Origin: a virus
Reading direction: 5' to 3' (one strand)
Length of the DNA: 64,000 nucleotides
IMG/VR virus record: IMGVR_UViG_3300008952_000005
Span: 113,461 to 177,460 of that record
Every line of letters starts with the position of its first letter. The stretch's first letter is position 1. The position numbers were made by a program, and so were the translations under genes. The notes under the pieces are model-generated. The model was given only the letters and a program-made list of their open reading frames with translations, did not search any database and was not told where the DNA came from. Shown here in pieces: positions 430 to 17,631 of the stretch.

Positions 430-858
430 CTAGCTCAGCATATTCAAAATTTGCTCAAAATTACCTGCTACTATCCATCCTATTACTATAGCAGCACCTA
501 ATATAATCCATCTATATTTTTCTAATACACCAACTCTAACACCAATAGCATTATAAACTGTTTTAATCTCTAGTAATAAACGTCTTTCAGTTTGTTCTAT
601 TTCTCTAGTTAAATCTCTACGTATATTGTCTATTTCACCTGCACGTTCTTTTAACTTCTCAAATATAACTTCATCAATTTGTTCTTGTCTATTGATTTTT
701 TCTGAATGGACTGCCAACATAGACTTAATAGATGTTGATACATCTGTTAATTTGTCTATTGCTGTGTCTAAACGGTTGTGAATTCTATCAAATTCTTCAA
801 CGTCTTTTTTGAGTTTAGCAATATCTACTTTTGTTTTAATTCCGTTATTTTCGTCCAT
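430..858 (-). CDS. Coiled-coil protein with one C-terminal TM helix (holin-like topology), hypothetical
   Basis: Heptad-rich body, then hydrophobic WIILGAAIVIGWIVA. Confidence 0.6.
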   Translation of the reverse strand: MDENNGIKTKVDIAKLKKDVEEFDRIHNRLDTAIDKLTDVSTSIKSMLAVHSEKINRQEQIDEVIFEKLKERAGEIDNIRRDLTREIEQTERRLLLEIKTVYNAIGVRVGVLEKYRWIILGAAIVIGWIVAGNFEQILNMLS

Positions 859-950: not shown

Positions 951-1081
951 TATACGTTTCTCCATTGTGTTGGCAACCACCATTCGGTGTACCAATGTCT
1001 AAATTGTGCTGGGTGTCTACCTATGATAAAGATATACCAGAAACCCTTTATTAATTCTTTTATTGCTGTTAACCTACTCAT
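950..1081 (-). CDS. Small Trp-rich peptide (43 aa), not in ORF track
   Basis: MSRLTAIKELIKGFWYIFIIGRHPAQFRHWYTEWWLPTQWRNV; TAATG overlaps at both ends. Confidence 0.55.
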   Translation of the reverse strand: MSRLTAIKELIKGFWYIFIIGRHPAQFRHWYTEWWLPTQWRNV

Positions 1082-3228
1082 TAATCCGTTTGTATTATAG
1101 TAATATTATTTTGTGTAGAGGAACTCCCTACGTCCACGTGTTGAGCTTCTGAATCTTGTAAAATCTGTATATCTGCTTCTTTACTTGTTTCAGTTTTTAC
1201 ATACGCTCTATGGCTATCATTATATCTATTTATGATTGTGTAGTCACCAGACGTTGAAGCAGTTGCGTTAAAGTCGTTATCTAACGTTGATACTCTTCCT
1301 GTAGAAGTAGTACTTGTTGACACACCACCGCTTGTTGTAGTTAAGGTTTGAGTTACATCTCCAGTAGAATAATTTAATGTTTCACCACTAGCAGTTACTT
1401 GCGTTTCTGAACCACTATTGTCTACCCATTCAGTACCACAACTAGAGTTGGCATTGTCCCAATAGTATCCATAATTTAAACACTCTTCTTTATCATAACT
1501 TGCTAATAATAATTCTAATTCTGCGTCTATATCATAGTCATCTTCGTAACCATATTCATCTTCCCAATTGGTCTCATCTGATTCATTATTGTAATCGTAA
1601 CCTGTATACCACCAATCATATACTGCGTCCCAATATGTATTCCAATCTGACCATTCCCAATCTGTTATGTACGTATTCTTTAAATCTTTCATCTTCCAAG
1701 GTTTAGGTTGATTTTCACACATTTTATAATTAGGATAACTTCCACACCAACCATATAATTTACCCCATATCTTTTTAGATTCTTTAGTCCAACTATCATT
1801 GGTTACTTTTAAAGTCCAGTCATCTTTGTACCACGAATTTAACCAATCAACATAGTCTTGGTTACACCAGTAGTCATCATAGCCATTGTACTCACAATAA
1901 TTTTGTATAGTTAATGTTGGTGGACCGCCTGCCGCTTTGTATTCTGCATTGTTATAATAGTCATCATCTAAAGCAAAATCTTCCCAAGTATATCCTTCAA
2001 CTACATCTGCTTCTGTTTCATCTTTTGTATCTTCAACTACGTTAACCTCTTCTTCTTCAACTGCCCAAGAAGTTAAACCATAATCTTCTAATAATTCATT
2101 ATACTCATCATAGTATGCGTCCCAATCAACTGCGTCCCAATCTACATCATCCCAATTAATAGTATCCCAAGTACAATCTGAACAACCAATGGCGTCAAAG
2201 TATGCTTGATCCATTTCTGCATACATTTTCTTTGCGTCATCCCAATCCATAGTTTGTTCACCTTCGGCATCCCAAACTGAAATCTGATTATCTTCATCTA
2301 TATAACCCCAATCTTTTAAATCTTCTTCCCAGGAATCATAATAAGATGTATCAACTTCTTCTACTTCAACTAATGCTGTTTCTTCTGCTGACTTTGTTTC
2401 AACTATTGCGTCTGTTTCACCAACAGATAAATCTGTAGCGACAATTGTATTACTATCTTCTACTACACTTGCTTCTTCATTAATTAATGCCTCTTCCATT
2501 GCCTGTGCTTCAGATTCTTCTTTAGACATTTCAGTTTTCATATCTACATCACCAAAATGTTTTTGAGATTCATCTTTTATTTCTTCTTCAAATTCATTTA
2601 ACTCAATAATATCTGACTTATTAGTTTCTATTTTTGGAGGTGTTGGTGCTAAATCATTTGATAAAACGGTTACTGAATTGTAAGCGTTAGTTATTGTTTG
2701 AGAACCTGCGTCATTGGATACAGTTACTTGTCCTACTACACCAGAACTATCTGGCAACAAAGTAATAGTTGCTTCACCTGTAGATGTTACCGTTCCTGAA
2801 AAAGCAGTACCTTGTACTGTAATTGTGGCATTACCAGCATTGATATTAACTTCACCACCTAAATTAGATATAGAACCTGATTCATATGTAAATGTACCAA
2901 CATTAACCGATATGTTCATTGCAATTTCTATTGGTACAACAGAAGTATCAAAAGCAAATTCATCAATAGTTAATTCTGTATTTGGTCCCATTGTAAATTT
3001 AGTTTTATCAACATATGATAAAATCATACCACCATCTTCTCCAGTTTGGAGAAAGTCATTCATCTGCAACTCATAACCCATTGAGGTATTTTGAGTTGAA
3101 CCATCTCTTTCGTTCCAAGTCGTACCCATTTGACCTATGACTTCGCCAACTTTTGGACCTGTTATTTGTGAGAAAACACTAGTACAAAAAAGTACCAGAA
3201 AAGATATTAAAAATAAAAACTTCTTCAT
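1081..3228 (-). CDS. Secreted FecR-domain protein with long acidic W/Y/D-rich C-terminal region
   Basis: Signal peptide; FecR-type motifs NDFLQTGEDGGMILSYVDKTKFTMGPNTELTIDEF and NATITVQGTAF; acidic tail ending NNITIIQTD. Confidence 0.8.
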   Translation of the reverse strand: MKKFLFLISFLVLFCTSVFSQITGPKVGEVIGQMGTTWNERDGSTQNTSMGYELQMNDFLQTGEDGGMILSYVDKTKFTMGPNTELTIDEFAFDTSVVPIEIAMNISVNVGTFTYESGSISNLGGEVNINAGNATITVQGTAFSGTVTSTGEATITLLPDSSGVVGQVTVSNDAGSQTITNAYNSVTVLSNDLAPTPPKIETNKSDIIELNEFEEEIKDESQKHFGDVDMKTEMSKEESEAQAMEEALINEEASVVEDSNTIVATDLSVGETDAIVETKSAEETALVEVEEVDTSYYDSWEEDLKDWGYIDEDNQISVWDAEGEQTMDWDDAKKMYAEMDQAYFDAIGCSDCTWDTINWDDVDWDAVDWDAYYDEYNELLEDYGLTSWAVEEEEVNVVEDTKDETEADVVEGYTWEDFALDDDYYNNAEYKAAGGPPTLTIQNYCEYNGYDDYWCNQDYVDWLNSWYKDDWTLKVTNDSWTKESKKIWGKLYGWCGSYPNYKMCENQPKPWKMKDLKNTYITDWEWSDWNTYWDAVYDWWYTGYDYNNESDETNWEDEYGYEDDYDIDAELELLLASYDKEECLNYGYYWDNANSSCGTEWVDNSGSETQVTASGETLNYSTGDVTQTLTTTSGGVSTSTTSTGRVSTLDNDFNATASTSGDYTIINRYNDSHRAYVKTETSKEADIQILQDSEAQHVDVGSSSTQNNITIIQTD

Positions 3229-3596
3229 TTCTTAAACACCTCATCTAAATCATTATAAAACGATTCTTTATCTGCATACCCTATTATTCTTACCAATTCT
3301 TTTCTACCATTCCATACAATAAATGTTGGTGTTCCTCTAATAGGTTTAATTCTTCCTTCAGCATATGCCTCTTTAAACCATTTAGGTTGATTATATAAAT
3401 TAATAATAACTAAAGGTAAATCTTCATACTCATAGTCAACTCCTACCTCTTGTAAAAAGTTTTGACATATACCACACATAGGATTGTGTGCCATTAATAA
3501 TTCATTTGCTTTCGCTGATGATATGCCTAATACTAATAATACAGTAACACAAATTATTATTGCCCATTTTTCCCAAGGGTTGTGAAATAGTTTCAT
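3225..3596 (-). CDS. Exported thioredoxin-like protein (SoxS-like)
   Basis: Signal/TM segment, CGIC CxxC motif, GTPTF cis-Pro loop, RIIGY. Confidence 0.8.
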   Translation of the reverse strand: MKLFHNPWEKWAIIICVTVLLVLGISSAKANELLMAHNPMCGICQNFLQEVGVDYEYEDLPLVIINLYNQPKWFKEAYAEGRIKPIRGTPTFIVWNGRKELVRIIGYADKESFYNDLDEVFKK

Positions 3597-3724
3597 TTAA
3601 ATTTCTTCTTCTTTTCTTTTCTTTTCCATTTTTCTGGATAGTAATTGTGGATTAGTGTACAGATTATGCCACCCGATAAACATATTGTACCAAATATTAA
3701 AAAGAAAGCAAAAAAACCTTTCAT
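3593..3724 (-). CDS. Small membrane protein (43 aa), not in ORF track
   Basis: MKGFFAFFLIFGTICLSGGIICTLIHNYYPEKWKRKEKKKKFK; ATGA overlap with the thioredoxin gene. Confidence 0.6.
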   Translation of the reverse strand: MKGFFAFFLIFGTICLSGGIICTLIHNYYPEKWKRKEKKKKFK

Positions 3725-4816
3725 TTAACACCCATTAGATACTGTTGCTGTTACGTCTGCTGTTTGATTGTTTCTGTTATAAGAATAAGTACAAGTATAT
3801 GATCCAGTTTGAGCAAAGTTTAATGTGTAATCGTAAATTGAATCACCTGTTATAGTAACCTTACCAGTATTACCACCACCTGTTTGAGCAAAATTTATTA
3901 CTGTATCATCTGTATAAAGGAAAATTCTAGCAGTATTATTACCGCCTGCCATATGTAATCTAATTGTATTACTATCGCCATTTATTATCGTTCTTAACCA
4001 ATTGTTATCGCCAGATATTATAGCTGAGTCTCCATATGGGTCTGTATCAGCACTAGTATAACTAGAGTGAATATCTAAAAGATTTGAACTGCCTATAAAA
4101 TCGTGTAGTTGATAGTTACCTGTACCATATGATGAAGTGTGTATTACATTTGAATTTCCTACTATGTAAATATCTGCACTTGCACCTTCACTACCTGAAC
4201 TGTCTGCAAAATAACCGTGTGAAGAAGTTAGTGGACCAATTGCTTTGTTAGAGTTTGTATTAAATCCTACTGAATCAGTTGTACTATACCACTCTACAGT
4301 ATTACTATCACCGTTCATAAGAACATATAAGAAGTGATTATCACCTCTATTCTGAACCCAAAATGTATTTGAGTCACCAACAATATCTAAATCAACATTG
4401 AAATTTGCTGAATCATCTGTCCAAGTATCATAGTCTACTACATTTGAATTACCTGTAATAGTATGACCTAAATAATGACCTGTAGCATCCGTATCATCTA
4501 TACCTAATCTTAATTTATTAGAATTACCAGTTGCTGTATATAATAAAGTCATATCCTCACCATAAAAGTGTTGGTGACCAGAATAATCTGATACATTATT
4601 ATTACCTATCTGATTTATAATGATTGTAATGTTCTCTCCATTGACTTTAAATGGATATGTTGTTGAATAACCAACAGTATTACCTGTTCCATCTTGTTTT
4701 ATAAAGATAGAACCATCGCTGTCTTGATTGTCTTGTTGAATCCAAACTGAATTACCTGCTAGGCAATTACTCGTTAATGCTATTAGAGTCAACAGAATCA
4801 TTATCATTTTTTTCAT
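3725..4816 (-). CDS. Curlin-like secreted beta-solenoid repeat protein (CsgA/CsgB-like)
   Basis: Signal peptide followed by about 12 imperfect repeats of hydrophobic-x-G-[ND]-[SN]-N (KQDGTGN, NQIGNNN, TATGNSN, TITGNSN, DIVGDSN, LMNGDSN, YIVGNSN, IINGDSN, AQTGGGN); directly downstream of csgG. Confidence 0.7.
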   Translation of the reverse strand: MKKMIMILLTLIALTSNCLAGNSVWIQQDNQDSDGSIFIKQDGTGNTVGYSTTYPFKVNGENITIIINQIGNNNVSDYSGHQHFYGEDMTLLYTATGNSNKLRLGIDDTDATGHYLGHTITGNSNVVDYDTWTDDSANFNVDLDIVGDSNTFWVQNRGDNHFLYVLMNGDSNTVEWYSTTDSVGFNTNSNKAIGPLTSSHGYFADSSGSEGASADIYIVGNSNVIHTSSYGTGNYQLHDFIGSSNLLDIHSSYTSADTDPYGDSAIISGDNNWLRTIINGDSNTIRLHMAGGNNTARIFLYTDDTVINFAQTGGGNTGKVTITGDSIYDYTLNFAQTGSYTCTYSYNRNNQTADVTATVSNGC

Positions 4817-5897
4817 CTACTTCCTCCCAGGCTTTCTCGTCTTCTATTTTTTCTTTTATCTTGTTTTTGTTTTCTTCTTTTTGAATTTCTTTTGTTTTAA
4901 GTGCTTCTAAATGTGCTAAATGTGCTTGATATTCGTCCCAAGTTTTAAACTTTGTTTTATTGGCTTTGTTATAATTTTTTACTTCAAGTTTTTGTGCTTT
5001 CTTTAATTCTTTTTTAGCTTTCTTTTCTTTCTTAAAATCTTCGTATGTTTTCTCTGGTTTTGCTTCGCCAATATCAACTGTTATTTCATCTGCTACTACT
5101 TTTAAATCTTCTGTTGGTACTATTTCCACTAGTTCAAATTCCCATAGTCCTTTTTCTGCACCTTCATTAATTAATTCTACTACACCTTTTTCTATTGCTT
5201 TTCTTACTGCATAAGTTACAGGTTCATTTCTTGCCACACCTGCTTCAATCTCTACTAACATTGTATCAGTATCTAAATATTTAAATATATCGCTGCCAGT
5301 TTCACCTGATATTATAGTCTTCTCAACAGTAAGTGATACCACTACTTCACCTGTTTGTACATTAACAAGTCTTAATATAATTGTAACTACATCTTGTCGC
5401 CATTGTTTATGTGCTTGTATACCTAAAATTCTTGCACCAAAACCACCTGTCTTTACATCACTATCATAACCTACTATACCACCTGTTATATATGCACCTG
5501 CAAATAACAATGGTGGTAATGGTTCTGCACCTTCTCCATTAACTTGTTGTCTTGTAGAACGGATTAATTTTCTTTCTTGTAATAAACTTGGCAAACTTGC
5601 TCGTTCTACTATTCTAAACCATTTGCCATCACCTGCGTCTTGTAATGCTTTAATTAATAACTGATATGATCCTTGAGTTACTGCTGTACTCATAGACGCA
5701 AAGTTACCACCAGGTTTCTTTTGTCCTGTCATATCTAAAAAATCATATACTGCAATGATAATAGGATCGCCTTTAGGTAATTTCACTTCCGTTAATTCTT
5801 TATACAGAACAGGTTGAGACCTAACATCAAAGTCAGGTTTACCAGCACAACTAACTAACAATAATGTTAGTAATAATATAACTATACTTCTAAACAT
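4767..5897 (-). CDS. csgG: Curli secretion channel lipoprotein CsgG, with charged C-terminal extension
   Basis: Start at MFRSIVILLLTLLLVSC (lipobox; TAATG-coupled to csgF, so the ORF-track start at 6002 is overextended); IAVYDFLDMTGQKKP, STAVTQG, WFRIVER..L..LLQERKLIR, GGIVGYD, D.VTI.LRLVNVQTGEV. Confidence 0.93.
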   Translation of the reverse strand: MFRSIVILLLTLLLVSCAGKPDFDVRSQPVLYKELTEVKLPKGDPIIIAVYDFLDMTGQKKPGGNFASMSTAVTQGSYQLLIKALQDAGDGKWFRIVERASLPSLLQERKLIRSTRQQVNGEGAEPLPPLLFAGAYITGGIVGYDSDVKTGGFGARILGIQAHKQWRQDVVTIILRLVNVQTGEVVVSLTVEKTIISGETGSDIFKYLDTDTMLVEIEAGVARNEPVTYAVRKAIEKGVVELINEGAEKGLWEFELVEIVPTEDLKVVADEITVDIGEAKPEKTYEDFKKEKKAKKELKKAQKLEVKNYNKANKTKFKTWDEYQAHLAHLEALKTKEIQKEENKNKIKEKIEDEKAWEEVDEKNDNDSVDSNSINE

Positions 5898-6361
5898 TAT
5901 GAGTTGTCTTCTTTCGGCATTGTAAATGTTGTTACAGTTCCGTCGGTCTCCGTGACAGTTACGCTTACAGTATCGTTTGCTCCTGTAGTTGTTGTTGCCC
6001 AAGTTACTACTTCACCACCAACTGGTGATGTAAATGTACCAGAGTCTTGTTGTAGACCATCTGTACCAAAAACATTATCTGTAAGTTGTTTAGCAAGTGC
6101 TGTATAAAATCTTGATTCAACATTTGCTTTAAATTTTGCTATTGCTGTTGCCTTGGCGTCTGCTATTACTTTATCTGCCGCCGCTTTATTCGCTGCCTTT
6201 ATAGCATCCTTCCTAGTCTTCTCAATATTCTCTATCGTTAGATAATGTGAAGATTTACCTTGACCTGAAAATGATGGACTATGAAATTTAAAACTTAATT
6301 CACTTGCATAGGCACTAGGAACTAACAATAATACTGTTAAAATAATGGTTATTAATCGCAT
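5897..6361 (-). CDS. csgF: Curli assembly protein CsgF
   Basis: Signal peptide then SELSFKFHSPSFSG (matches the CsgF N-terminal motif), F..N.ESR.Y..LA.QL...FG, and C-terminal beta strands. Confidence 0.85.
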   Translation of the reverse strand: MRLITIILTVLLLVPSAYASELSFKFHSPSFSGQGKSSHYLTIENIEKTRKDAIKAANKAAADKVIADAKATAIAKFKANVESRFYTALAKQLTDNVFGTDGLQQDSGTFTSPVGGEVVTWATTTTGANDTVSVTVTETDGTVTTFTMPKEDNS

Positions 6362-6384
6362 TTTCCTTCTCTCTTTGATGTATA

Positions 6385-6392
6385 TATTTATA
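6385..6392 (-). promoter_or_regulatory. T4-type late promoter for the csgF operon
   Basis: TATAAATA on the minus strand, 24 nt upstream of the csgF ATG. Confidence 0.8.
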
Positions 6393-6400
6393 AGATATCT

Positions 6401-6414
6401 GTACTAAATAGTAC
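6401..6414 (+). promoter_or_regulatory. Late-promoter variant (CTAAATA) inside a palindrome, upstream of the cyclase
   Basis: GTACTA-AA-TAGTAC containing TAAATA, a few nt before the ATG at 6417. Confidence 0.5.
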
Positions 6415-6416
6415 GT

Positions 6417-8072
6417 ATGATTAAAATATTGACGAAAACGTGGGCAGTATATTTGACGTTGATTATATTACTTGGAATATATATATCAAATCCTATCTTG
6501 CTACAAACAGCAAAACTAAACACCTTTGATTTTTACCAAACCTTTGGTAAGAATTATGAATCCAAAAGTTTAGTACTAGTAGACATATCAGACAAAGCAT
6601 TAAAAAAGAATGGGCAATGGCCGTGGAAAAGAGATTTACTTGGTCGTGTCATAATCAATGCGTATAAAAATGGTGCCGCTCTTGTAGTTTTACAAGTAGT
6701 CTTCCCACATAAAGATAGATTAGGTGGTGATGAAATGTTTTTGAAAATGATACAAAAATATCCAGTCATACTTACTGAAACGGATGATGTAAAAAATCTA
6801 CAAAGTATCTCACGTAAAGCATTAGCAATAGGTAACGTAAGTGTGCCAGTTGATATAGATGGCACTATAAGAAAACTACCTCTTGATAAATCCATACCTG
6901 ATGTTATCTTAAAAGTTATCAATGCAAAAACTTTAGCAGAAGATACTATCTGGATTGATTTCAGACATCATATTCCTAGAATAGATTTTACTGATAAAGA
7001 TTGGTCGTCTGTAAAAGGTAAAATAGTTTTCATAGGTACAACATTCCAAGGTTCAACATTTGTTACTACTCCTAATGGATTAAAAAACACACACGAAATT
7101 ATGGCAATCAGTACAGAAACTTTATTGTCAGGTAATTTTATTAGTAGACCTTATTGGTTACCATATAGTGAATTTGCTTTTATACTATTAGGTGCTCTAT
7201 TTTTTCTCATAGTTATACCTAGATGTGGTGTAATGTGGTCTGCGATATGGTTTGGTGGATACTTATTTGATTTAACACTTGCAAGTTCTTATCTATGGAC
7301 GCAACACTTAATCATAACTGATTGGTTCAGTCCACTTGTAATAGGGTCTGTAATATGGGGTCAGTTAACATACAATAACTATTCAAAAGAAAATAAATTA
7401 AGACTACAAATTAAGAAACAATTTGAACACTATCTATCTCCAGATATGGTTAAAAAACTACAAAAGAATCCATCACTATTAAAACTAGGTGGTGAAAGAA
7501 AAAAAATGACGTTTTTGTTTTCAGACATACGTGGCTTTACTCCTATATCGGAATCTATGAAAGGTAATCCAGAAAAACTTACCAAGTATGTTAATAAGTT
7601 CTTGACTGTAATGACTGATATAATATTAAAAAATGGTGGAACTATTGATAAGTATATGGGTGATTGTATAATGGCATTTTGGAACGCACCCCTAGACAAT
7701 CCAAATCATCAAAGATTAGCAGTATTATCTGCATCCCAAATGAAAAAAACAGTTGAAGAAATGAATAAGAGTAGAGAGTTTGACCCACCTTTAAAGATTG
7801 GTATAGGTATCAATACTGGTGAGTGTCTTGTAGGTAATATGGGGTCTGAACAACGTTTTGATTATTCTGTTATTGGTGACGCTGTTAATTTGGCAAGTAG
7901 ATTGGAAGGTAAAAGTAAAGATTTTGATACTACAATAGTAATATCTCAACATACTGCTGAAGGTATTGACTTTGTTCCATTGGCAAGACCAGATGGATTT
8001 AAATTCTATAAACTAGGTATCTCTACTGTAAAAGGTAAAAAAGAAAAGGTTAATTGTTTTTCTATTAAATAA
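6417..8072 (+). CDS. CHASE2-domain class III adenylate cyclase (membrane-bound)
   Basis: N-terminal TM; CHASE2 motifs LVLVDISDKAL...GQWPWKRD and DIDGTIR; 3 TM helices; catalytic domain FSDIRGFT, IDKYMGD, GIGINTG, RFDYSVIGDAVNLASRLE. Confidence 0.92.
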   Translation: MIKILTKTWAVYLTLIILLGIYISNPILLQTAKLNTFDFYQTFGKNYESKSLVLVDISDKALKKNGQWPWKRDLLGRVIINAYKNGAALVVLQVVFPHKDRLGGDEMFLKMIQKYPVILTETDDVKNLQSISRKALAIGNVSVPVDIDGTIRKLPLDKSIPDVILKVINAKTLAEDTIWIDFRHHIPRIDFTDKDWSSVKGKIVFIGTTFQGSTFVTTPNGLKNTHEIMAISTETLLSGNFISRPYWLPYSEFAFILLGALFFLIVIPRCGVMWSAIWFGGYLFDLTLASSYLWTQHLIITDWFSPLVIGSVIWGQLTYNNYSKENKLRLQIKKQFEHYLSPDMVKKLQKNPSLLKLGGERKKMTFLFSDIRGFTPISESMKGNPEKLTKYVNKFLTVMTDIILKNGGTIDKYMGDCIMAFWNAPLDNPNHQRLAVLSASQMKKTVEEMNKSREFDPPLKIGIGINTGECLVGNMGSEQRFDYSVIGDAVNLASRLEGKSKDFDTTIVISQHTAEGIDFVPLARPDGFKFYKLGISTVKGKKEKVNCFSIK

Positions 8073-13907: not shown

Positions 13908-15689
13908 TTAATTAGTATAACTTATCTCTGGATCAGTTTCAATTTTTGAAGCAGGGTTACCAGTCATAGTTCTACCTTTTGTAGGTTCATCTTTCTTTTT
14001 AGCAAGTTTTGCTTTTTCTGCTTTTTCTTTAAGTCTTGCTCTTAAAGTTTCATATTTTAGTTTGTAAGGACTTACTGCTTCTTTTTTAACTTCGTCTTTG
14101 TCTTCTTTGTCTTCTTTGTCTTCTTTTTTTTCTGCTTTATCTCTTAAAAGTTTTTGTGCTAGTCCAACTGTTAAAGGAACTTCTCCTGTTTCTTTATCTG
14201 CAACAGGTTTAATTACTTTACCTTTTTCATTTTCTAATTTTGCTTTTAATACATTAATTTGACCTTGCAACGTTAAAATTTGTTTCTCTTGTGCTGCTGG
14301 GTCTTTAGCACTTGGACCATCTTTACCATCTTTAGCATCCCTTGTTGCTCTTATCTTTGCAATCTTTACACCTGGTTTGTTATCTTTTGCAATAGGTGGA
14401 ATTTTACTTTCATTTCTTGTAGGCAACAGTACAGAGTCTCCTCTTGTTGCTGTTTCATTAGCTGCTTTATTCCAAATATTTCTGATAGTATTTTCTAAAT
14501 TTGTTGATGGTTCTGGTTTATCACTACCAATAACATCTTTCTTTGGTTCTTTTTTATCTTCTGTAGTAGATACATTTGCTGTACTAAACTTAACTTCTTT
14601 TTTCTTATCTGCCATTTTAGAAACTTCTCCAGCGTCAATCGTTTCAGTAGTAGATACGTTAGCAGTTTTAAAATCAACTTCTTTTTTCTTGTCTTTCATT
14701 TTAGATACTTCGCCTGCGTCAATCGTTTCTTGCATATCTTCTGTAGGTCTTTGTGTTTCTATTCCTGAAATACCAAAATGTATATCTTGGTCATAACCTT
14801 CTGCAAGTTTCCATCCTTTTGCTAAATATTCTTTTTCTTTAGACTTATCTATTACGATAGTCTTGCCGTGTTTAGAAACCATTGTTTCTTTTTTAGGGTC
14901 TTTAAGTTGTCTTGGTAATTCTTCTTCTATATCATTACCTTTAGGTTGTTTTTCAGCAACTCTATAACCAAATCTATATTTTTTTCTAACACCTCTTGAA
15001 GCAGTACCTCTTCTTGAAGATGAATTAGCTCCACCTGGCATTGCTTCTGAAACAGTTTCTTCCGACATTGCTTCTTGTCTTGCTAAATTCTTTTCGTTTG
15101 CTAAATGAGGTTTGATTCTATTGCCATTATATGCTCTTTTATTTTCAGGTATCTTTTCTACTTTACCACCTTTGTCAAGAAAGTCTTTCATCAACTGCTC
15201 ATCAGCGTGTTTTCCATTAGAAGGTTTCCATTCTTCTTTTAATGCTTTTCCTTTATCCCAATAATGCCAGCTTGTTTTATCCCAAATTTCATCAGGTCCT
15301 ATTAGTCGTTTAAATTCTCTTTCTGCCTTATTAAAAGCATCAATTTTTTTCATTTTATTTTCTTTTGCATATTTAATAATAAGTGCCGCTACTTCTTTAC
15401 CAGTTTCGTTAGTTGAAGCTATCCAACTTTGACTTTCTGGATCTTTGTCCATCTCATCTTTACCTTTTTTGTATTCTCTAAATTTTGCTGCTATATTATT
15501 CCAGCTAACACCTTCGTCTAGCTTATTAAAAAATGCTATCTTTTCTTTAGGTGTCATTGAACCAATACCACCCATAGTATTTTTTAATGCTTCAGCGAAT
15601 TTCTTTTTATAACCTTCTTCTTTATACTTCGCTTGATGTTGATATACCACATCCTCAATACTGCCTGGTTTTTGTTTTAAATATGTCAT
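13908..15689 (-). CDS. Large Lys/Glu-rich probable head-internal (prohead core) protein
   Basis: Likely start MTYLKQ at 15689 after a TAAATA element (the ORF track starts at 15734); many hydrophobic-x-E motifs. Confidence 0.55.
   Translation of the reverse strand: MTYLKQKPGSIEDVVYQHQAKYKEEGYKKKFAEALKNTMGGIGSMTPKEKIAFFNKLDEGVSWNNIAAKFREYKKGKDEMDKDPESQSWIASTNETGKEVAALIIKYAKENKMKKIDAFNKAEREFKRLIGPDEIWDKTSWHYWDKGKALKEEWKPSNGKHADEQLMKDFLDKGGKVEKIPENKRAYNGNRIKPHLANEKNLARQEAMSEETVSEAMPGGANSSSRRGTASRGVRKKYRFGYRVAEKQPKGNDIEEELPRQLKDPKKETMVSKHGKTIVIDKSKEKEYLAKGWKLAEGYDQDIHFGISGIETQRPTEDMQETIDAGEVSKMKDKKKEVDFKTANVSTTETIDAGEVSKMADKKKEVKFSTANVSTTEDKKEPKKDVIGSDKPEPSTNLENTIRNIWNKAANETATRGDSVLLPTRNESKIPPIAKDNKPGVKIAKIRATRDAKDGKDGPSAKDPAAQEKQILTLQGQINVLKAKLENEKGKVIKPVADKETGEVPLTVGLAQKLLRDKAEKKEDKEDKEDKDEVKKEAVSPYKLKYETLRARLKEKAEKAKLAKKKDEPTKGRTMTGNPASKIETDPEISYTN
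14562..14729 (-). repeat. Tandem 84-nt (28-aa) repeat inside the CDS
   Basis: ETIDAGEVSKMKDKKKEVDFKTANVSTT / ETIDAGEVSKMADKKKEVKFSTANVSTT. Confidence 0.9.
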
Positions 15690-15693
15690 AGTA

Positions 15694-17631
15694 CTATTTA
15701 TCTCCTCGTTTATGCTGGGACCACAATCTTTCAAAGGTCATTTTAGCACCTACGTGCTCGTCCTTTTTAATTGCCTTAGCAATTTCGTGACCTTTTACTA
15801 TCGTTGATTTTTTCAACGGTGTTCCGCTATCCTTTTTAATCTCTTTTGCTTTTGCCATACCTATTGCATATGCTTTGTCATCATCTTCTACTAATTTTGA
15901 TATGTGTGGTATGTCTGCCGCTTTAATTGCAAGTTGTGTAGGTATATCCATTCTCTTAATCATTTGTTTAACAGCGTCGGTTACATCTGTCGCTTTTTTA
16001 TTCTTCCATACACCCTTAATATTAGCAATTTGTTTATCACTCATTTTACTTTGTAAATATCCACTATCTTCTTTAATTACTTTAGCTGATTTAGTCTTAC
16101 TCATATCACCTGTTTTATACCACTTAATATATTTTTCTGCTTCAGCAGGTGTATTATATTTACCAATAACTAATTTACTTCCATCTGTTTTTGTAATCTG
16201 TACTGTATATGCTTCTTTATATACATCAATTTCTACTGGATCAAAACCACCAGGTCTACCAACAGACCTCTTTCGTTTATTCCATAACTCAGCAAATTTA
16301 TCTGCTAATTTATCTGCTTTATTTTGTGCGTCTTTATCATTAGAAGCAGTTAATGTTCCTTCATCTTCTTGATCCCCACCATCATTACCGTAATCGGATG
16401 ATATCTTAATATCATAATGATATGTTGCTTCTGTAGCAATTTGTTTGCCTTCTGGTTCTGGTAGTTTTTGTTCAACAGGTGATGTATTTCTACCCATTTT
16501 ATTAATCTTAAAACCTTTGCTTCTTAATTTCTGTGCTTTGTTTTGTAAATCTTGTAGAGTTTTTGCGTCTTCAAAACCTGCGTGTTTGCCATACTTATCA
16601 TCATAAGATAATCTGAAAGGTGCTTTTGCTTCTGGAACATAACTATGTGTCATACTAGTAGTTATACTAATAGGTTTAGTAGTTGGTTCTATTTCAACAT
16701 CATCTATGTCTTCAACACTACCACCACCACCTGGTCCTATTTTTCTTCTCGCTCTATACTTATCTAATTCTTTTTCATATTTATTTTCAGCATCCTTTTT
16801 ACTAGTTGCATTAATAACCATATCAAATCTATCTTGACTACTAACATCTTTATAACCTAAAACACCTTGTATTCTCCATCTACCTTCATCTAATTGTTCT
16901 CTTCTCATTTGTGCCAATTGGGCAGCATTAGCTCCGTGTTTTGAAATGAGTCTTGCTTGCGCTAACATTGACACAAATGGAATCTTTGCCTTTAATAGTT
17001 TTATTAAAAGCGGTTTACTCTTATCAAACTTATCAAATATTTTCATAAGTTTGTTAGCATTAACACCACTTATAGTTTTACCTTGTAAGGGTGCGTAATC
17101 TTTTTTCAAACTTGCTATTTGACTGTCTGTAAATTCCTGTAATGTGTCAACTTCTTCACCTAAAATAATTTTTACTGTTGATACTTTTAAATTTAATCTT
17201 TTGGCAATCTCTTTATGAGATTTACCTTCTTGATCCATCGTGTAGATATCTTTCATTCTACCTTCATCAAATTCTTCCAGTTCTTCTTTTGCCATAGACA
17301 CAGGTTCAGTATTCAACCATTCTTGGTGTCTTTTGCCTGGGTGTACTTTTTTACAATCGTGTTCTTCACCTAAAATTGCTTTAGGCATTATTTGTACATC
17401 GCCGTGAGATTTTTCTACTTCTTTTTTTAGTAATGTTTTGGCTTTTTCTACGTCCCCTCTTGGAACGTATAAGTTACCGTATGAAAATCTAGTACGGCTA
17501 ATTCCGTTTTTCTTTAGAAAAGATTGAACACCCCACTCAAAACCTTCGCTCATTTTATAGCGAGTCATACTCATAGGTTCTCTATACCTACTTTGTTTCC
17601 ACTTTTCTAATTGTTCTTTTAAGTCGCCCAT
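15694..17631 (-). CDS. Large modular probable head-internal protein
   Basis: Likely start MGDLKEQ at 17631, just after the upstream stop; segments bounded by (I/L/V)-x-E-[EADG]; HTH-like GKSHKEIAKRLNLKVSTVKIIL. Confidence 0.55.
   Translation of the reverse strand: MGDLKEQLEKWKQSRYREPMSMTRYKMSEGFEWGVQSFLKKNGISRTRFSYGNLYVPRGDVEKAKTLLKKEVEKSHGDVQIMPKAILGEEHDCKKVHPGKRHQEWLNTEPVSMAKEELEEFDEGRMKDIYTMDQEGKSHKEIAKRLNLKVSTVKIILGEEVDTLQEFTDSQIASLKKDYAPLQGKTISGVNANKLMKIFDKFDKSKPLLIKLLKAKIPFVSMLAQARLISKHGANAAQLAQMRREQLDEGRWRIQGVLGYKDVSSQDRFDMVINATSKKDAENKYEKELDKYRARRKIGPGGGGSVEDIDDVEIEPTTKPISITTSMTHSYVPEAKAPFRLSYDDKYGKHAGFEDAKTLQDLQNKAQKLRSKGFKINKMGRNTSPVEQKLPEPEGKQIATEATYHYDIKISSDYGNDGGDQEDEGTLTASNDKDAQNKADKLADKFAELWNKRKRSVGRPGGFDPVEIDVYKEAYTVQITKTDGSKLVIGKYNTPAEAEKYIKWYKTGDMSKTKSAKVIKEDSGYLQSKMSDKQIANIKGVWKNKKATDVTDAVKQMIKRMDIPTQLAIKAADIPHISKLVEDDDKAYAIGMAKAKEIKKDSGTPLKKSTIVKGHEIAKAIKKDEHVGAKMTFERLWSQHKRGDK

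Follow-up and report, generated by a model that had tools for sequence, protein, structure and literature searches.

A curli-like secretion cassette with a candidate FecR-CHASE2 envelope sensor in a marine T4-like phage

We analysed a stretch of 64,000 nucleotides (the window) that forms the final 64 kb of a 177,460-bp virus record (IMG/VR record IMGVR_UViG_3300008952_000005), and in particular its region 1081-8072, where six minus-strand genes (in the order csgF, csgG, the gene for a curlin-like repeat protein that we call R, a gene for a peptide of 43 amino acids (aa), a thioredoxin-like gene and a gene for a 715-aa FecR-type protein) lie head-to-head with one plus-strand gene encoding a CHASE2 receptor adenylate cyclase. 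It is close to certain that the locus is a member of the published pelagiphage type VIII secretion system (T8SS) module, and what is new here is mainly the reading of the FecR-type protein and the cyclase as an envelope-sensor pair. Sequence, predicted structures and analogy to characterised systems together favour, with rather better than even confidence, an explanation in which this pelagiphage T8SS cassette would export a curlin-like fibre late in infection and would carry a FecR-CHASE2 relay resembling that of NsrA and CyaK in Sinorhizobium meliloti.

The source is a complete 177-kb marine T4-like phage. The record has direct terminal repeats and was judged 100% complete, and the window is AT-rich (GC content of about 0.31-0.33), with nearly all genes on the minus strand and with GC content and strand skew even along its length. 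These properties, together with the presence of the same cassette in 80 other viral contigs and in the cultured phage HTVC008M, exclude the worry, raised in an earlier note on this DNA, that the region could be a chimera with host DNA. The same note had described one coupled six-gene unit head-to-head with the cyclase gene; all seven genes were indeed found where it had placed them, and the identities that it had given them held. The stop of csgF and the start of csgG share 1 nt, csgG and the R gene overlap by 50 nt, the R gene and the peptide gene abut, and the peptide and thioredoxin-like genes and the thioredoxin-like and FecR-type genes overlap by 4 nt each. By inspection, Sec signals are present on all cassette products except the cyclase. 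With its 7 kb out of 177 kb, the cassette accounts for about 4% of the phage genome.

Phage-borne csgF and csgG and their neighbours have been reported before, with 'sibling capture' being proposed (Zaragoza-Solas et al. 2020, PMC7029224), and for the OM43 phage Melnitz, Buchholz et al. (2022, PMC9004378) put forward a pinholin or secretin role for them. Wittmers et al. (2022, PMC9599517) described CsgF, CsgG, CsgA/B-like fibres, FecR and adenylate cyclase in the T8SS modules of podo- and myo-pelagiphages, showed that these are distributed worldwide and transcribed, and considered aggregation, superinfection exclusion and import; their paper reads FecR as an iron-related regulator and makes no mention of CHASE2, thioredoxin or disulfide. 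The gene set and the ideas of aggregation and superinfection exclusion, which formed the central claim of the earlier note, are thus not new. Its statement that no fibre subunit had yet been identified is likewise superseded, as gp016 of HTVC008M is annotated as CsgB and CsgA/B are reported in PMC9599517. HTVC008M (2013), a cultured Pelagibacter myophage, carries a homologous cassette in which every component has its homologue (gp014-gp019, in this order csgF, csgG, a gene annotated as 'CsgB', one for a FecR-like protein, one for a second repeat protein and one for an adenylate/guanylyl cyclase).

The gene set is strongly conserved among phages. A CsgG scan of viral contigs yielded 80 loci, in which open reading frames (ORFs) were called and searched with the window proteins; including the window this makes 81 viral loci (labels such as L023 are our own). 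The cassette was complete in 34/34 viral loci with full flanks, and the cyclase gene was directly adjacent in all of them, either divergent upstream of csgF (22 loci), in tandem downstream of the FecR gene (11 loci) or both (one locus). Among the 50 loci with enough downstream flank, a long R gene (encoding about 363 aa) and a FecR-type gene (about 715 aa) followed csgFG in 49, the exception being HTVC008M, which has a shorter repeat gene. The co-occurrence of R, FecR and cyclase with csgFG, on which the earlier proposal depended, is therefore general in these phages. Every cassette gene showed a ratio of nonsynonymous to synonymous substitution rates (dN/dS) between 0.12 and 0.47.

The bacterial sample consisted of 80 bacterial-genome contigs with the closest CsgG relatives, with phage CsgG and diverse representatives as the query (a genome scan with phage CsgG alone gave no bacterial relatives). 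Within 10 kb of 77 genuine bacterial csgG loci no FecR-type, CHASE2 or cyclase gene was found, in agreement with PMC9599517, so that phage DNA was the only place where the sensor pair was seen joined to a T8SS (0/77 sampled bacterial loci). Three apparent cases of a full cassette in bacteria, found in metagenome-assembled genomes (MAGs) of Rhodobacterales (L087), Pirellulales (L099) and Sphingobacteriales (L119), were rejected, since HTVC008M-like myophage genes lie on both sides; these are phage contigs that were binned into MAGs and could mislead inferences on host or origin. The phage-only linkage between T8SS and sensor pair suggests that the state of the surface or of the channel is what is sensed.

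The csgF gene (5897..6361, minus strand) encodes an exported protein of 154 aa with a signal peptide ending in AYA, which matches PF10614 with 43.1 bits (cut-off 25.8) and phrog_35372 at 9e-34 and is 36% identical to HTVC008M gp014. Its N-terminal FxFxxPxFxG motif (SFKFHSPSFSG) aligns with TFQFRNPNFGG of E. coli CsgF (6L7A chain J), in a weak pairwise match (E 0.35). The csgG gene (4767..5897, minus strand) encodes an outer-membrane lipoprotein channel of 376 aa that matches PF03783 with 169 bits (cut-off 20.8), the solved E. coli CsgG (3X2R/6L7A) at E 9e-48 over residues 8-255, and HTVC008M gp015 with 43% identity. The real start of csgG is the ATG at 5897 (MFRSIV..., with lipobox LVSC) and not the upstream TTG at 6002; the lipobox MFRSIVILLLTLLLVS-C was read by eye, and C17 is invariant in 11 phage sequences. 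The constriction loop, KKPGGNFASMS, is present and invariant among the phages, and the protein ends in a K/E-rich tail of about 90 aa (encoded at 4767-5040), which E. coli CsgG does not have. That CsgG and CsgF would together form an outer-membrane channel follows from these homologies. The length of CsgG varies with the tail, from 302 to 474 aa among relatives, and in nearly all loci the R gene starts 50 nt inside the tail region of csgG (4767-4816 in the window).

R (3725..4816, minus strand) has 363 aa. It carries a signal peptide and about 14 beta-arc repeats of the form G-x-x-N, and two cysteines at its C-terminus (C342 and C363) are invariant. A profile of 43 phage homologues of R matched proteins encoded beside csgF/csgG in most of the 77 bacterial loci (E 1e-4 to 1e-15), and all seven of the bacterial matches that were scanned contain Curlin_rpt PF07012 (7/7, E 1e-13 to 6e-86). 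An AlphaFold model of R, made from 40 sequences, consists of stacked strand-turn-strand repeats (pLDDT 71.6, pTM 0.74), and its best match among 48,161 chains was CsgA of Pontibacter korlensis (8C50, Z 24.3 over 267 residues), the runners-up being generic beta-helices with Z of 17.0 or less. R is best read as a divergent CsgA/B-type subunit, and this remote homology, the predicted fold and the position of the gene lead us to infer that R would be secreted and would polymerise. For late export of such a fibre through CsgG/CsgF the balance of these predictions is slightly favourable. Of all cassette genes that of R evolves fastest (with a dN/dS of about 0.43), which is what one would expect if the protein is exposed at the surface.

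The last gene of the operon (1081..3228, minus strand) encodes the exported FecR-type protein of 715 aa, which matches phrog_37870 at 1e-20 and HTVC008M gp017 with 28.6% identity (E 2.8e-16). In its predicted model a two-lobed beta N-domain (24-200) is followed by a disordered acidic linker (about 196-290, some 95 residues), a helical domain rich in Cys, Trp, Tyr and Asp (about 290-600) with 8 conserved cysteines, and a small beta domain (610-713) with 9 strands in about 100 aa. Residues 100-199 of the model match PupR (6OVK/6OVM, Z 9.9, root-mean-square deviation (rmsd) of 2.1-2.2 over 91 aa) and BDI_1681 (Z 9.1), with a Foldseek probability of 1.00 for the FecR-domain fold. PupR is a FecR-family anti-sigma factor, and the matched part is its periplasmic signalling domain. 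The identity of the phage protein as a FecR-type anti-sigma factor was ruled out because it has no cytoplasmic anti-sigma domain and, after the signal peptide, no transmembrane helix, the beta domain coming directly next. Within this model of the whole protein, the middle and C-terminal domains gave no clear structural match and no Atlas lead, which does not amount to evidence for a new fold. A curlin-like nature of the C-terminus was considered and rejected, as profile-profile comparisons of the C-terminal 115 residues, the middle and the N-domain with the R family gave E 0.2-0.65, and the C-terminal profile did not match bacterial curlins. One relative (L009:5260-7500) has two ORFs, of 509 and 222 aa, in place of an intact FecR-type gene, owing either to a frameshift or to a sequencing error.

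A clue to the function of this protein came from the genes that adjoin CHASE2 genes in bacteria. On pSymB of S. meliloti, a gene for a 1,190-aa FecR domain-containing protein ends exactly at, or overlaps, the start of cyaK, and because it lies directly upstream of cyaK we take it to be the gene for NsrA, the outer-membrane protein that is required for signal perception by CyaK and by CyaD1/D2 (PMC7529298, PMC13001267). The FecN profile, that of the phage FecR domain, matched the NsrA-like protein of S. meliloti at 9e-6 and its Ensifer counterpart, in E. adhaerens, at 3e-4, each of them encoded directly upstream of the best cyclase homologue, and the catalytic profile of the phage cyclase matched S. 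meliloti CyaK at 4e-84. In four alphaproteobacterial genomes, 4/9 CHASE2 genes are directly preceded, on their own strand, by a FecR-domain gene, and in Burkholderia and Pseudomonas biofilm is under the control of a FecR/CHASE2-kinase operon (PMC5192318). In view of the pSymB pairing, the FecN profile matches, the upstream FecR-domain genes and the Burkholderia/Pseudomonas operon, the phage FecR/CHASE2 pair is probably an envelope sensor and not an iron regulator. The reading of PMC9599517, in which FecR would be a regulator of the iron (ferric citrate) type and would make curli or uptake depend on iron limitation, has on its side the name of the Pfam family and the ecological weight of iron in the surface ocean. 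We give it hardly any credence, since the phage protein has neither the anti-sigma domain nor the transmembrane helix of such regulators, since no extracytoplasmic function (ECF) sigma factor and no TonB-dependent transducer was found among the cassette neighbours scanned, and since NsrA, the nearest characterised counterpart, is a partner of CHASE2 cyclases for which no role in iron is known.

The cyclase gene itself (6417..8072, plus strand) encodes 551 aa and matches PF05226 (CHASE2) with 98.7 bits and PF00211 (Guanylate_cyc) with 80.2 bits. The protein is composed of a transmembrane segment, a periplasmic CHASE2 domain (about 29-262), further membrane segments and a class IIIb catalytic domain (about 340-551). 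The CHASE2 match spans residues 15-262 and includes an invariant GQWPWxR motif; hydrophobic segments were found at 1-32 and 247-280, and more were seen by eye up to about 320. Among solved structures it comes closest to the fusion of a bacteriophytochrome with an adenylate cyclase (6FHT, 8e-36) and to CyaB of P. aeruginosa (3R5G, 1e-33). The protein is 33.5% identical to HTVC008M gp019 and 34% to S. meliloti CyaK, and the search for homologues was dominated by close marine phage relatives. With catalytic positions assigned from the alignment to CyaB 3R5G and general knowledge of class III cyclases, D370, K412, D416, S484, N491 and R495 turned out to be invariant in 42 sequences, in line with the earlier description of the cyclase as intact. 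We take these residues to be the two metal-binding aspartates, the substrate lysine, the class IIIb specificity serine and the transition-state asparagine and arginine. The domain would thus be expected, from its sequence, to make cyclic AMP (cAMP) in the cytoplasm. In one sub-lineage (L070:7676-9322 and 14361-16286, and also L069, L071 and L073) two CHASE2 cyclases flank the cassette; the second cyclase of L070 has 641 aa and a far more divergent CHASE2 domain (7e-30 vs 2e-151).

In the explanation that we favour, csgF, csgG, the R gene, the peptide and thioredoxin-like genes where present, and the FecR gene would be transcribed late in infection as one translationally coupled operon, along with the adjacent cyclase gene. 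The CsgG lipoprotein and CsgF would build the outer-membrane channel, and R, a curlin-like beta-solenoid of 14 repeats, would be secreted and polymerised. The periplasmic FecR-type domain would signal to CHASE2 and the class IIIb domain would respond by making cAMP in the cytoplasm, a step that we propose because of the gene-for-gene homology with, and the conserved adjacency in, Alphaproteobacteria. In this way the cytoplasm would be informed of the state of the channel, of the fibre or of the surface of the cell, and the host would read the cAMP. By analogy with the alphaproteobacterial pair, a FecR-to-CHASE2 relay that makes cAMP appears somewhat more probable than its absence.

Several observations weigh against this explanation. 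R had no Pfam match (E <= 0.01), Curlin_rpt PF07012 included, and even HTVC008M-type homologues of R reached only 14-17 bits against PF07012 (cut-off 20.7); the superposition of the R model on 8C50 has an rmsd of 9.0 Å, and a Foldseek search with the R model returned nothing below E 1e-3. Residues Y51, N55 and F56 of E. coli CsgG align as G, S and M in the phage loop, where an N-F pair occurs two residues earlier. The N-terminus of the FecR-type protein of the window stays under the cut-off of Pfam FecR (PF04773, 19.6 bits, E 0.0012, cut-off 24), a threshold that the HTVC008M-type homologue L087 passes with 32.5 bits, and no outer-membrane beta-barrel was predicted in the C-terminal 425 residues of the window protein. 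No canonical cyclic nucleotide monophosphate (cNMP)-binding domain of the Crp type was recognisable in the phage genome, so that a host receptor or an unrecognised one must read any cAMP. For phage cassettes, fibres, secretion and cAMP are predictions from sequence and models, and cells infected with Melnitz showed no clumping (PMC9004378).

This last result would fit another scheme, in which CsgG, with or without CsgF, would only be a hole in the outer membrane that serves lysis timing (the pinholin or secretin proposal for Melnitz) or nutrient uptake, and R would not be a secreted amyloid. No fibres were seen in the Melnitz infections either (PMC9004378), the cassette lacks the CsgE gate (PMC9599517), and CsgG is unlike its E. 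coli counterpart both in its constriction loop and in its C-terminal tail. Nevertheless, in every locus csgG is followed by a curlin-like gene, on which purifying selection acts, R is remotely homologous to bacterial curlins and has a predicted CsgA-like fold, and the channel-inserting N-terminus of CsgF is retained, as far as its weak pairwise match (E 0.35) indicates. Moreover, a hole through the outer membrane cannot depolarise the inner membrane the way a pinholin does. We therefore regard a pore without a fibre as improbable.

A stronger competitor to the combined explanation, although still an unlikely one, is that the locus holds two independent modules, with the T8SS making a surface structure or a pore and the FecR/CHASE2 cyclase, as a self-contained device for manipulating the host, raising cAMP upon a periplasmic or external cue that has nothing to do with curli; they would be neighbours only in that each is late cargo aimed at the envelope and one variable region holds both. 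Bacterial FecR-CHASE2 pairs work without a T8SS (PMC7529298), FecR and cyclase are sometimes absent from podophage modules (PMC9599517), the position and strand of the cyclase gene vary among relatives, and its recombination history stands apart (97% identity to L023, as against 57-64% for R and FecR). What speaks for a joint function is that the FecR gene always lies in the T8SS operon, after the curlin gene and translationally coupled, that the cyclase adjoins the operon in 34/34 loci and that the combination has moved between phage families as one block (PMC9599517).

How the FecR-type protein could sense the channel is a matter on which its model offers one bold idea. Residues 24-96 match the RIN domain of the Marinomonas ice-binding RTX adhesin MpIBP (5IX9, Z 12.5, rmsd 1.3 Å, 73/76 residues). 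RIN is a periplasmic beta-sandwich plug, too large for the outer-membrane pore, that holds MpIBP in a TolC-like pore (PMC5550230); the identity between the two domains is only 16%, and RIN, like the N-terminal retention domains of LapA-type adhesins, belongs to type I secreted adhesins. The FecR-type protein might thus be a tether threaded through the pore that replaces the barrel of NsrA, a conception that we judge a long shot. The plug-fold N-lobe would stay periplasmic at CsgG/CsgF and touch CHASE2, the acidic linker would run through the CsgG channel, and the Cys-rich domain would be outside among the curli-like fibres, so that occupancy of the channel, or a pull by another cell, a particle or a superinfecting phage, would lead to cAMP. 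If true, this would be a phage-built mechanical or contact sensor across the whole envelope.

The upstream regions of the cassette contain two short elements that bear on the proposed late expression. The T4-type late-promoter-like element TATAAATA (6385..6392, minus strand) lies 23 nt upstream of the csgF start, and the same element was found about 30 nt before the csgF ATG in 45 of 53 distinct upstream regions of relatives. The window has 13 copies (6385 to 63709), all on the coding (minus) strand and each with the start of an ORF of at least 40 aa within 64 nt downstream; their total count is not above chance, and it is the strand bias and the placement that fit T4-type late promoters. We infer from this that TATAAATA may direct late transcription of the cassette. 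A second element, ACTAAATA (6403..6410, plus strand), precedes the ATG of the cyclase gene by 6 nt, and a Shine-Dalgarno sequence is missing from the space between. It, or xxTAAATA, recurs 5-9 nt ahead of this ATG in 36 of 40 distinct relatives, both where the cyclase gene is divergent and where it lies downstream. It could be a late-promoter variant that gives a nearly leaderless mRNA, or a conserved recombination junction. Relatives that carry ACTAAATA include, for instance, L020 (around 14200) and L055 (around 5590), and where the cyclase gene lies downstream, the stop of the FecR gene falls within the motif (...CAG ACT AAA TA...). Scans for sigma-70 promoters and terminators gave results at chance level. 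Short contigs from RNA libraries of three studies cover all cassette genes, which is weak evidence for expression as DNA carry-over is possible.

The two small genes inside the operon are a different matter. The 43-aa peptide gene (3593..3724, minus strand) encodes a single-pass membrane peptide with a hydrophobic N-terminus, a Lys-rich C-terminus and no family match; it is kept in 7/81 viral loci, always between the R gene and the next gene. The thioredoxin-like gene (3225..3596, minus strand) encodes an exported protein of 123 aa that matches PF13098 (Thioredoxin_2) with 27.0 bits, exactly at the cut-off of 27. A CGIC motif and a GTPTF cis-Pro loop were read from its sequence, and it has a weak match (E 0.17) to a 116-aa protein of known structure (3D4T/3DML, deposited as putative uncharacterized protein). 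True thioredoxin homologues were found in only 5/81 loci, namely in the window, in L023, L024 and L026 (near-identical loci, with the gene in the same place) and in L031, where the copy lies elsewhere in the genome. The 8-9 cysteines of the FecR-type protein are kept in all relatives. The two genes are thus optional add-ons of a sub-lineage, because they occur sporadically and the Cys pattern of FecR is kept with or without a thioredoxin gene. The earlier note had seen in the thioredoxin the folding catalyst of the system, and this part of its interpretation fell, as did its statement about the fibre; the gene identities, their co-occurrence, the intact cyclase and the origin from phage DNA stood. 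Thioredoxin matches in most relatives were discarded, for only the N-terminal signal-anchor (FHNPWEKWA...) is common and the mature Cys-rich domain is unrelated. Four relatives (L011:5678-6148, L015:5658-6122, L041:3350-3787 and L042:6716-7102) encode small exported Cys-rich proteins with the leader K(L/F)FHN.WEKWA..I..., which is nearly that of the window protein at 3225-3596, in front of a different mature domain; by their sequences, mature domains look as if they were shuffled behind a common leader.

The cassette as a whole is a mosaic. Compared with L023 the identity is 97% for the cyclase, 94% for the thioredoxin, 77% for csgF, 73% for csgG, 64% for FecR and 57% for R, and compared with L011 the pattern is reversed. 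Beyond the FecR gene, the window encodes a DUF7201 coiled-coil protein with a C-terminal membrane helix (430-858, minus strand), which follows the cassette in 38 viral loci and may form part of this late envelope block.

Few biological entities of the sea are more abundant than SAR11 and its phages. With the cassette the infected cell would acquire both a secretion system and a second-messenger sensor, which the host is reported to lack. If fibres are indeed built and reported via cAMP, this would bear on plankton aggregation, on competition among phages and on carbon export. What is gained is a sharper hypothesis than that of an 'iron regulator', with a genetically studied counterpart in NsrA/CyaK, and since the cultured phage HTVC008M has a homologous cassette, the idea is directly testable.

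In comparison with known systems, the locus is closest to the module of Wittmers et al. and to HTVC008M, with which it shares the core gene order, the host group and the location in a variable genome region. In contrast to HTVC008M, the cyclase of the window is divergent upstream of csgF, and its FecR-type protein has 715 aa with extra Cys-rich helical and beta domains, whereas HTVC008M has a 368-aa FecR followed by a separate 441-aa curlin-like protein. The window further differs from both by the inserted 43-aa peptide and thioredoxin-like genes and by the lack of a histidine-kinase ATPase domain, of which none was found in the phage genome. With bacterial curli systems, those of E. coli as well as the variants of Alphaproteobacteria and Bacteroidota, the cassette has homologous CsgG and CsgF in common, as well as a gene for a multi-repeat beta-solenoid subunit beside them, and CsgC/D/E are absent from it as they are in Alphaproteobacteria (PMC9599517). 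Unlike bacterial curli, it is encoded by a lytic phage of a host group reported to be without curli genes (PMC7029224), its R protein stays under the Pfam curlin threshold and has a conserved C-terminal Cys pair, its CsgG has a constriction loop different from that of E. coli and a charged tail, and FecR and a CHASE2 cyclase are attached to it, which is the case in none of the 77 bacterial curli loci (0/77).

For the sensor pair, BiofilmReg of Burkholderia and PA4035-PA4036 of P. aeruginosa resemble the phage arrangement in that a periplasmic FecR-domain protein is encoded beside a CHASE2 sensor with a link to biofilm (PMC5192318); they differ in their output, which consists of a histidine kinase and a response regulator, and in a FecR protein that carries LysM. 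NsrA/CyaK of S. meliloti is the more instructive counterpart. NsrA (about 1,200 aa) has an outer-membrane beta-barrel of its own, whereas the phage FecR-type protein has none and CsgG is the only outer-membrane protein of the phage cassette, and S. meliloti reads cAMP via the regulator Clr whereas the phage system is without a known receptor. In both systems, however, the gene for a FecR-domain envelope protein adjoins, and is coupled to, the gene for a CHASE2 class III cyclase, both partners are homologous between S. meliloti and the phage, and the S. meliloti pair relays an external protein signal to cAMP (PMC7529298, PMC13001267).

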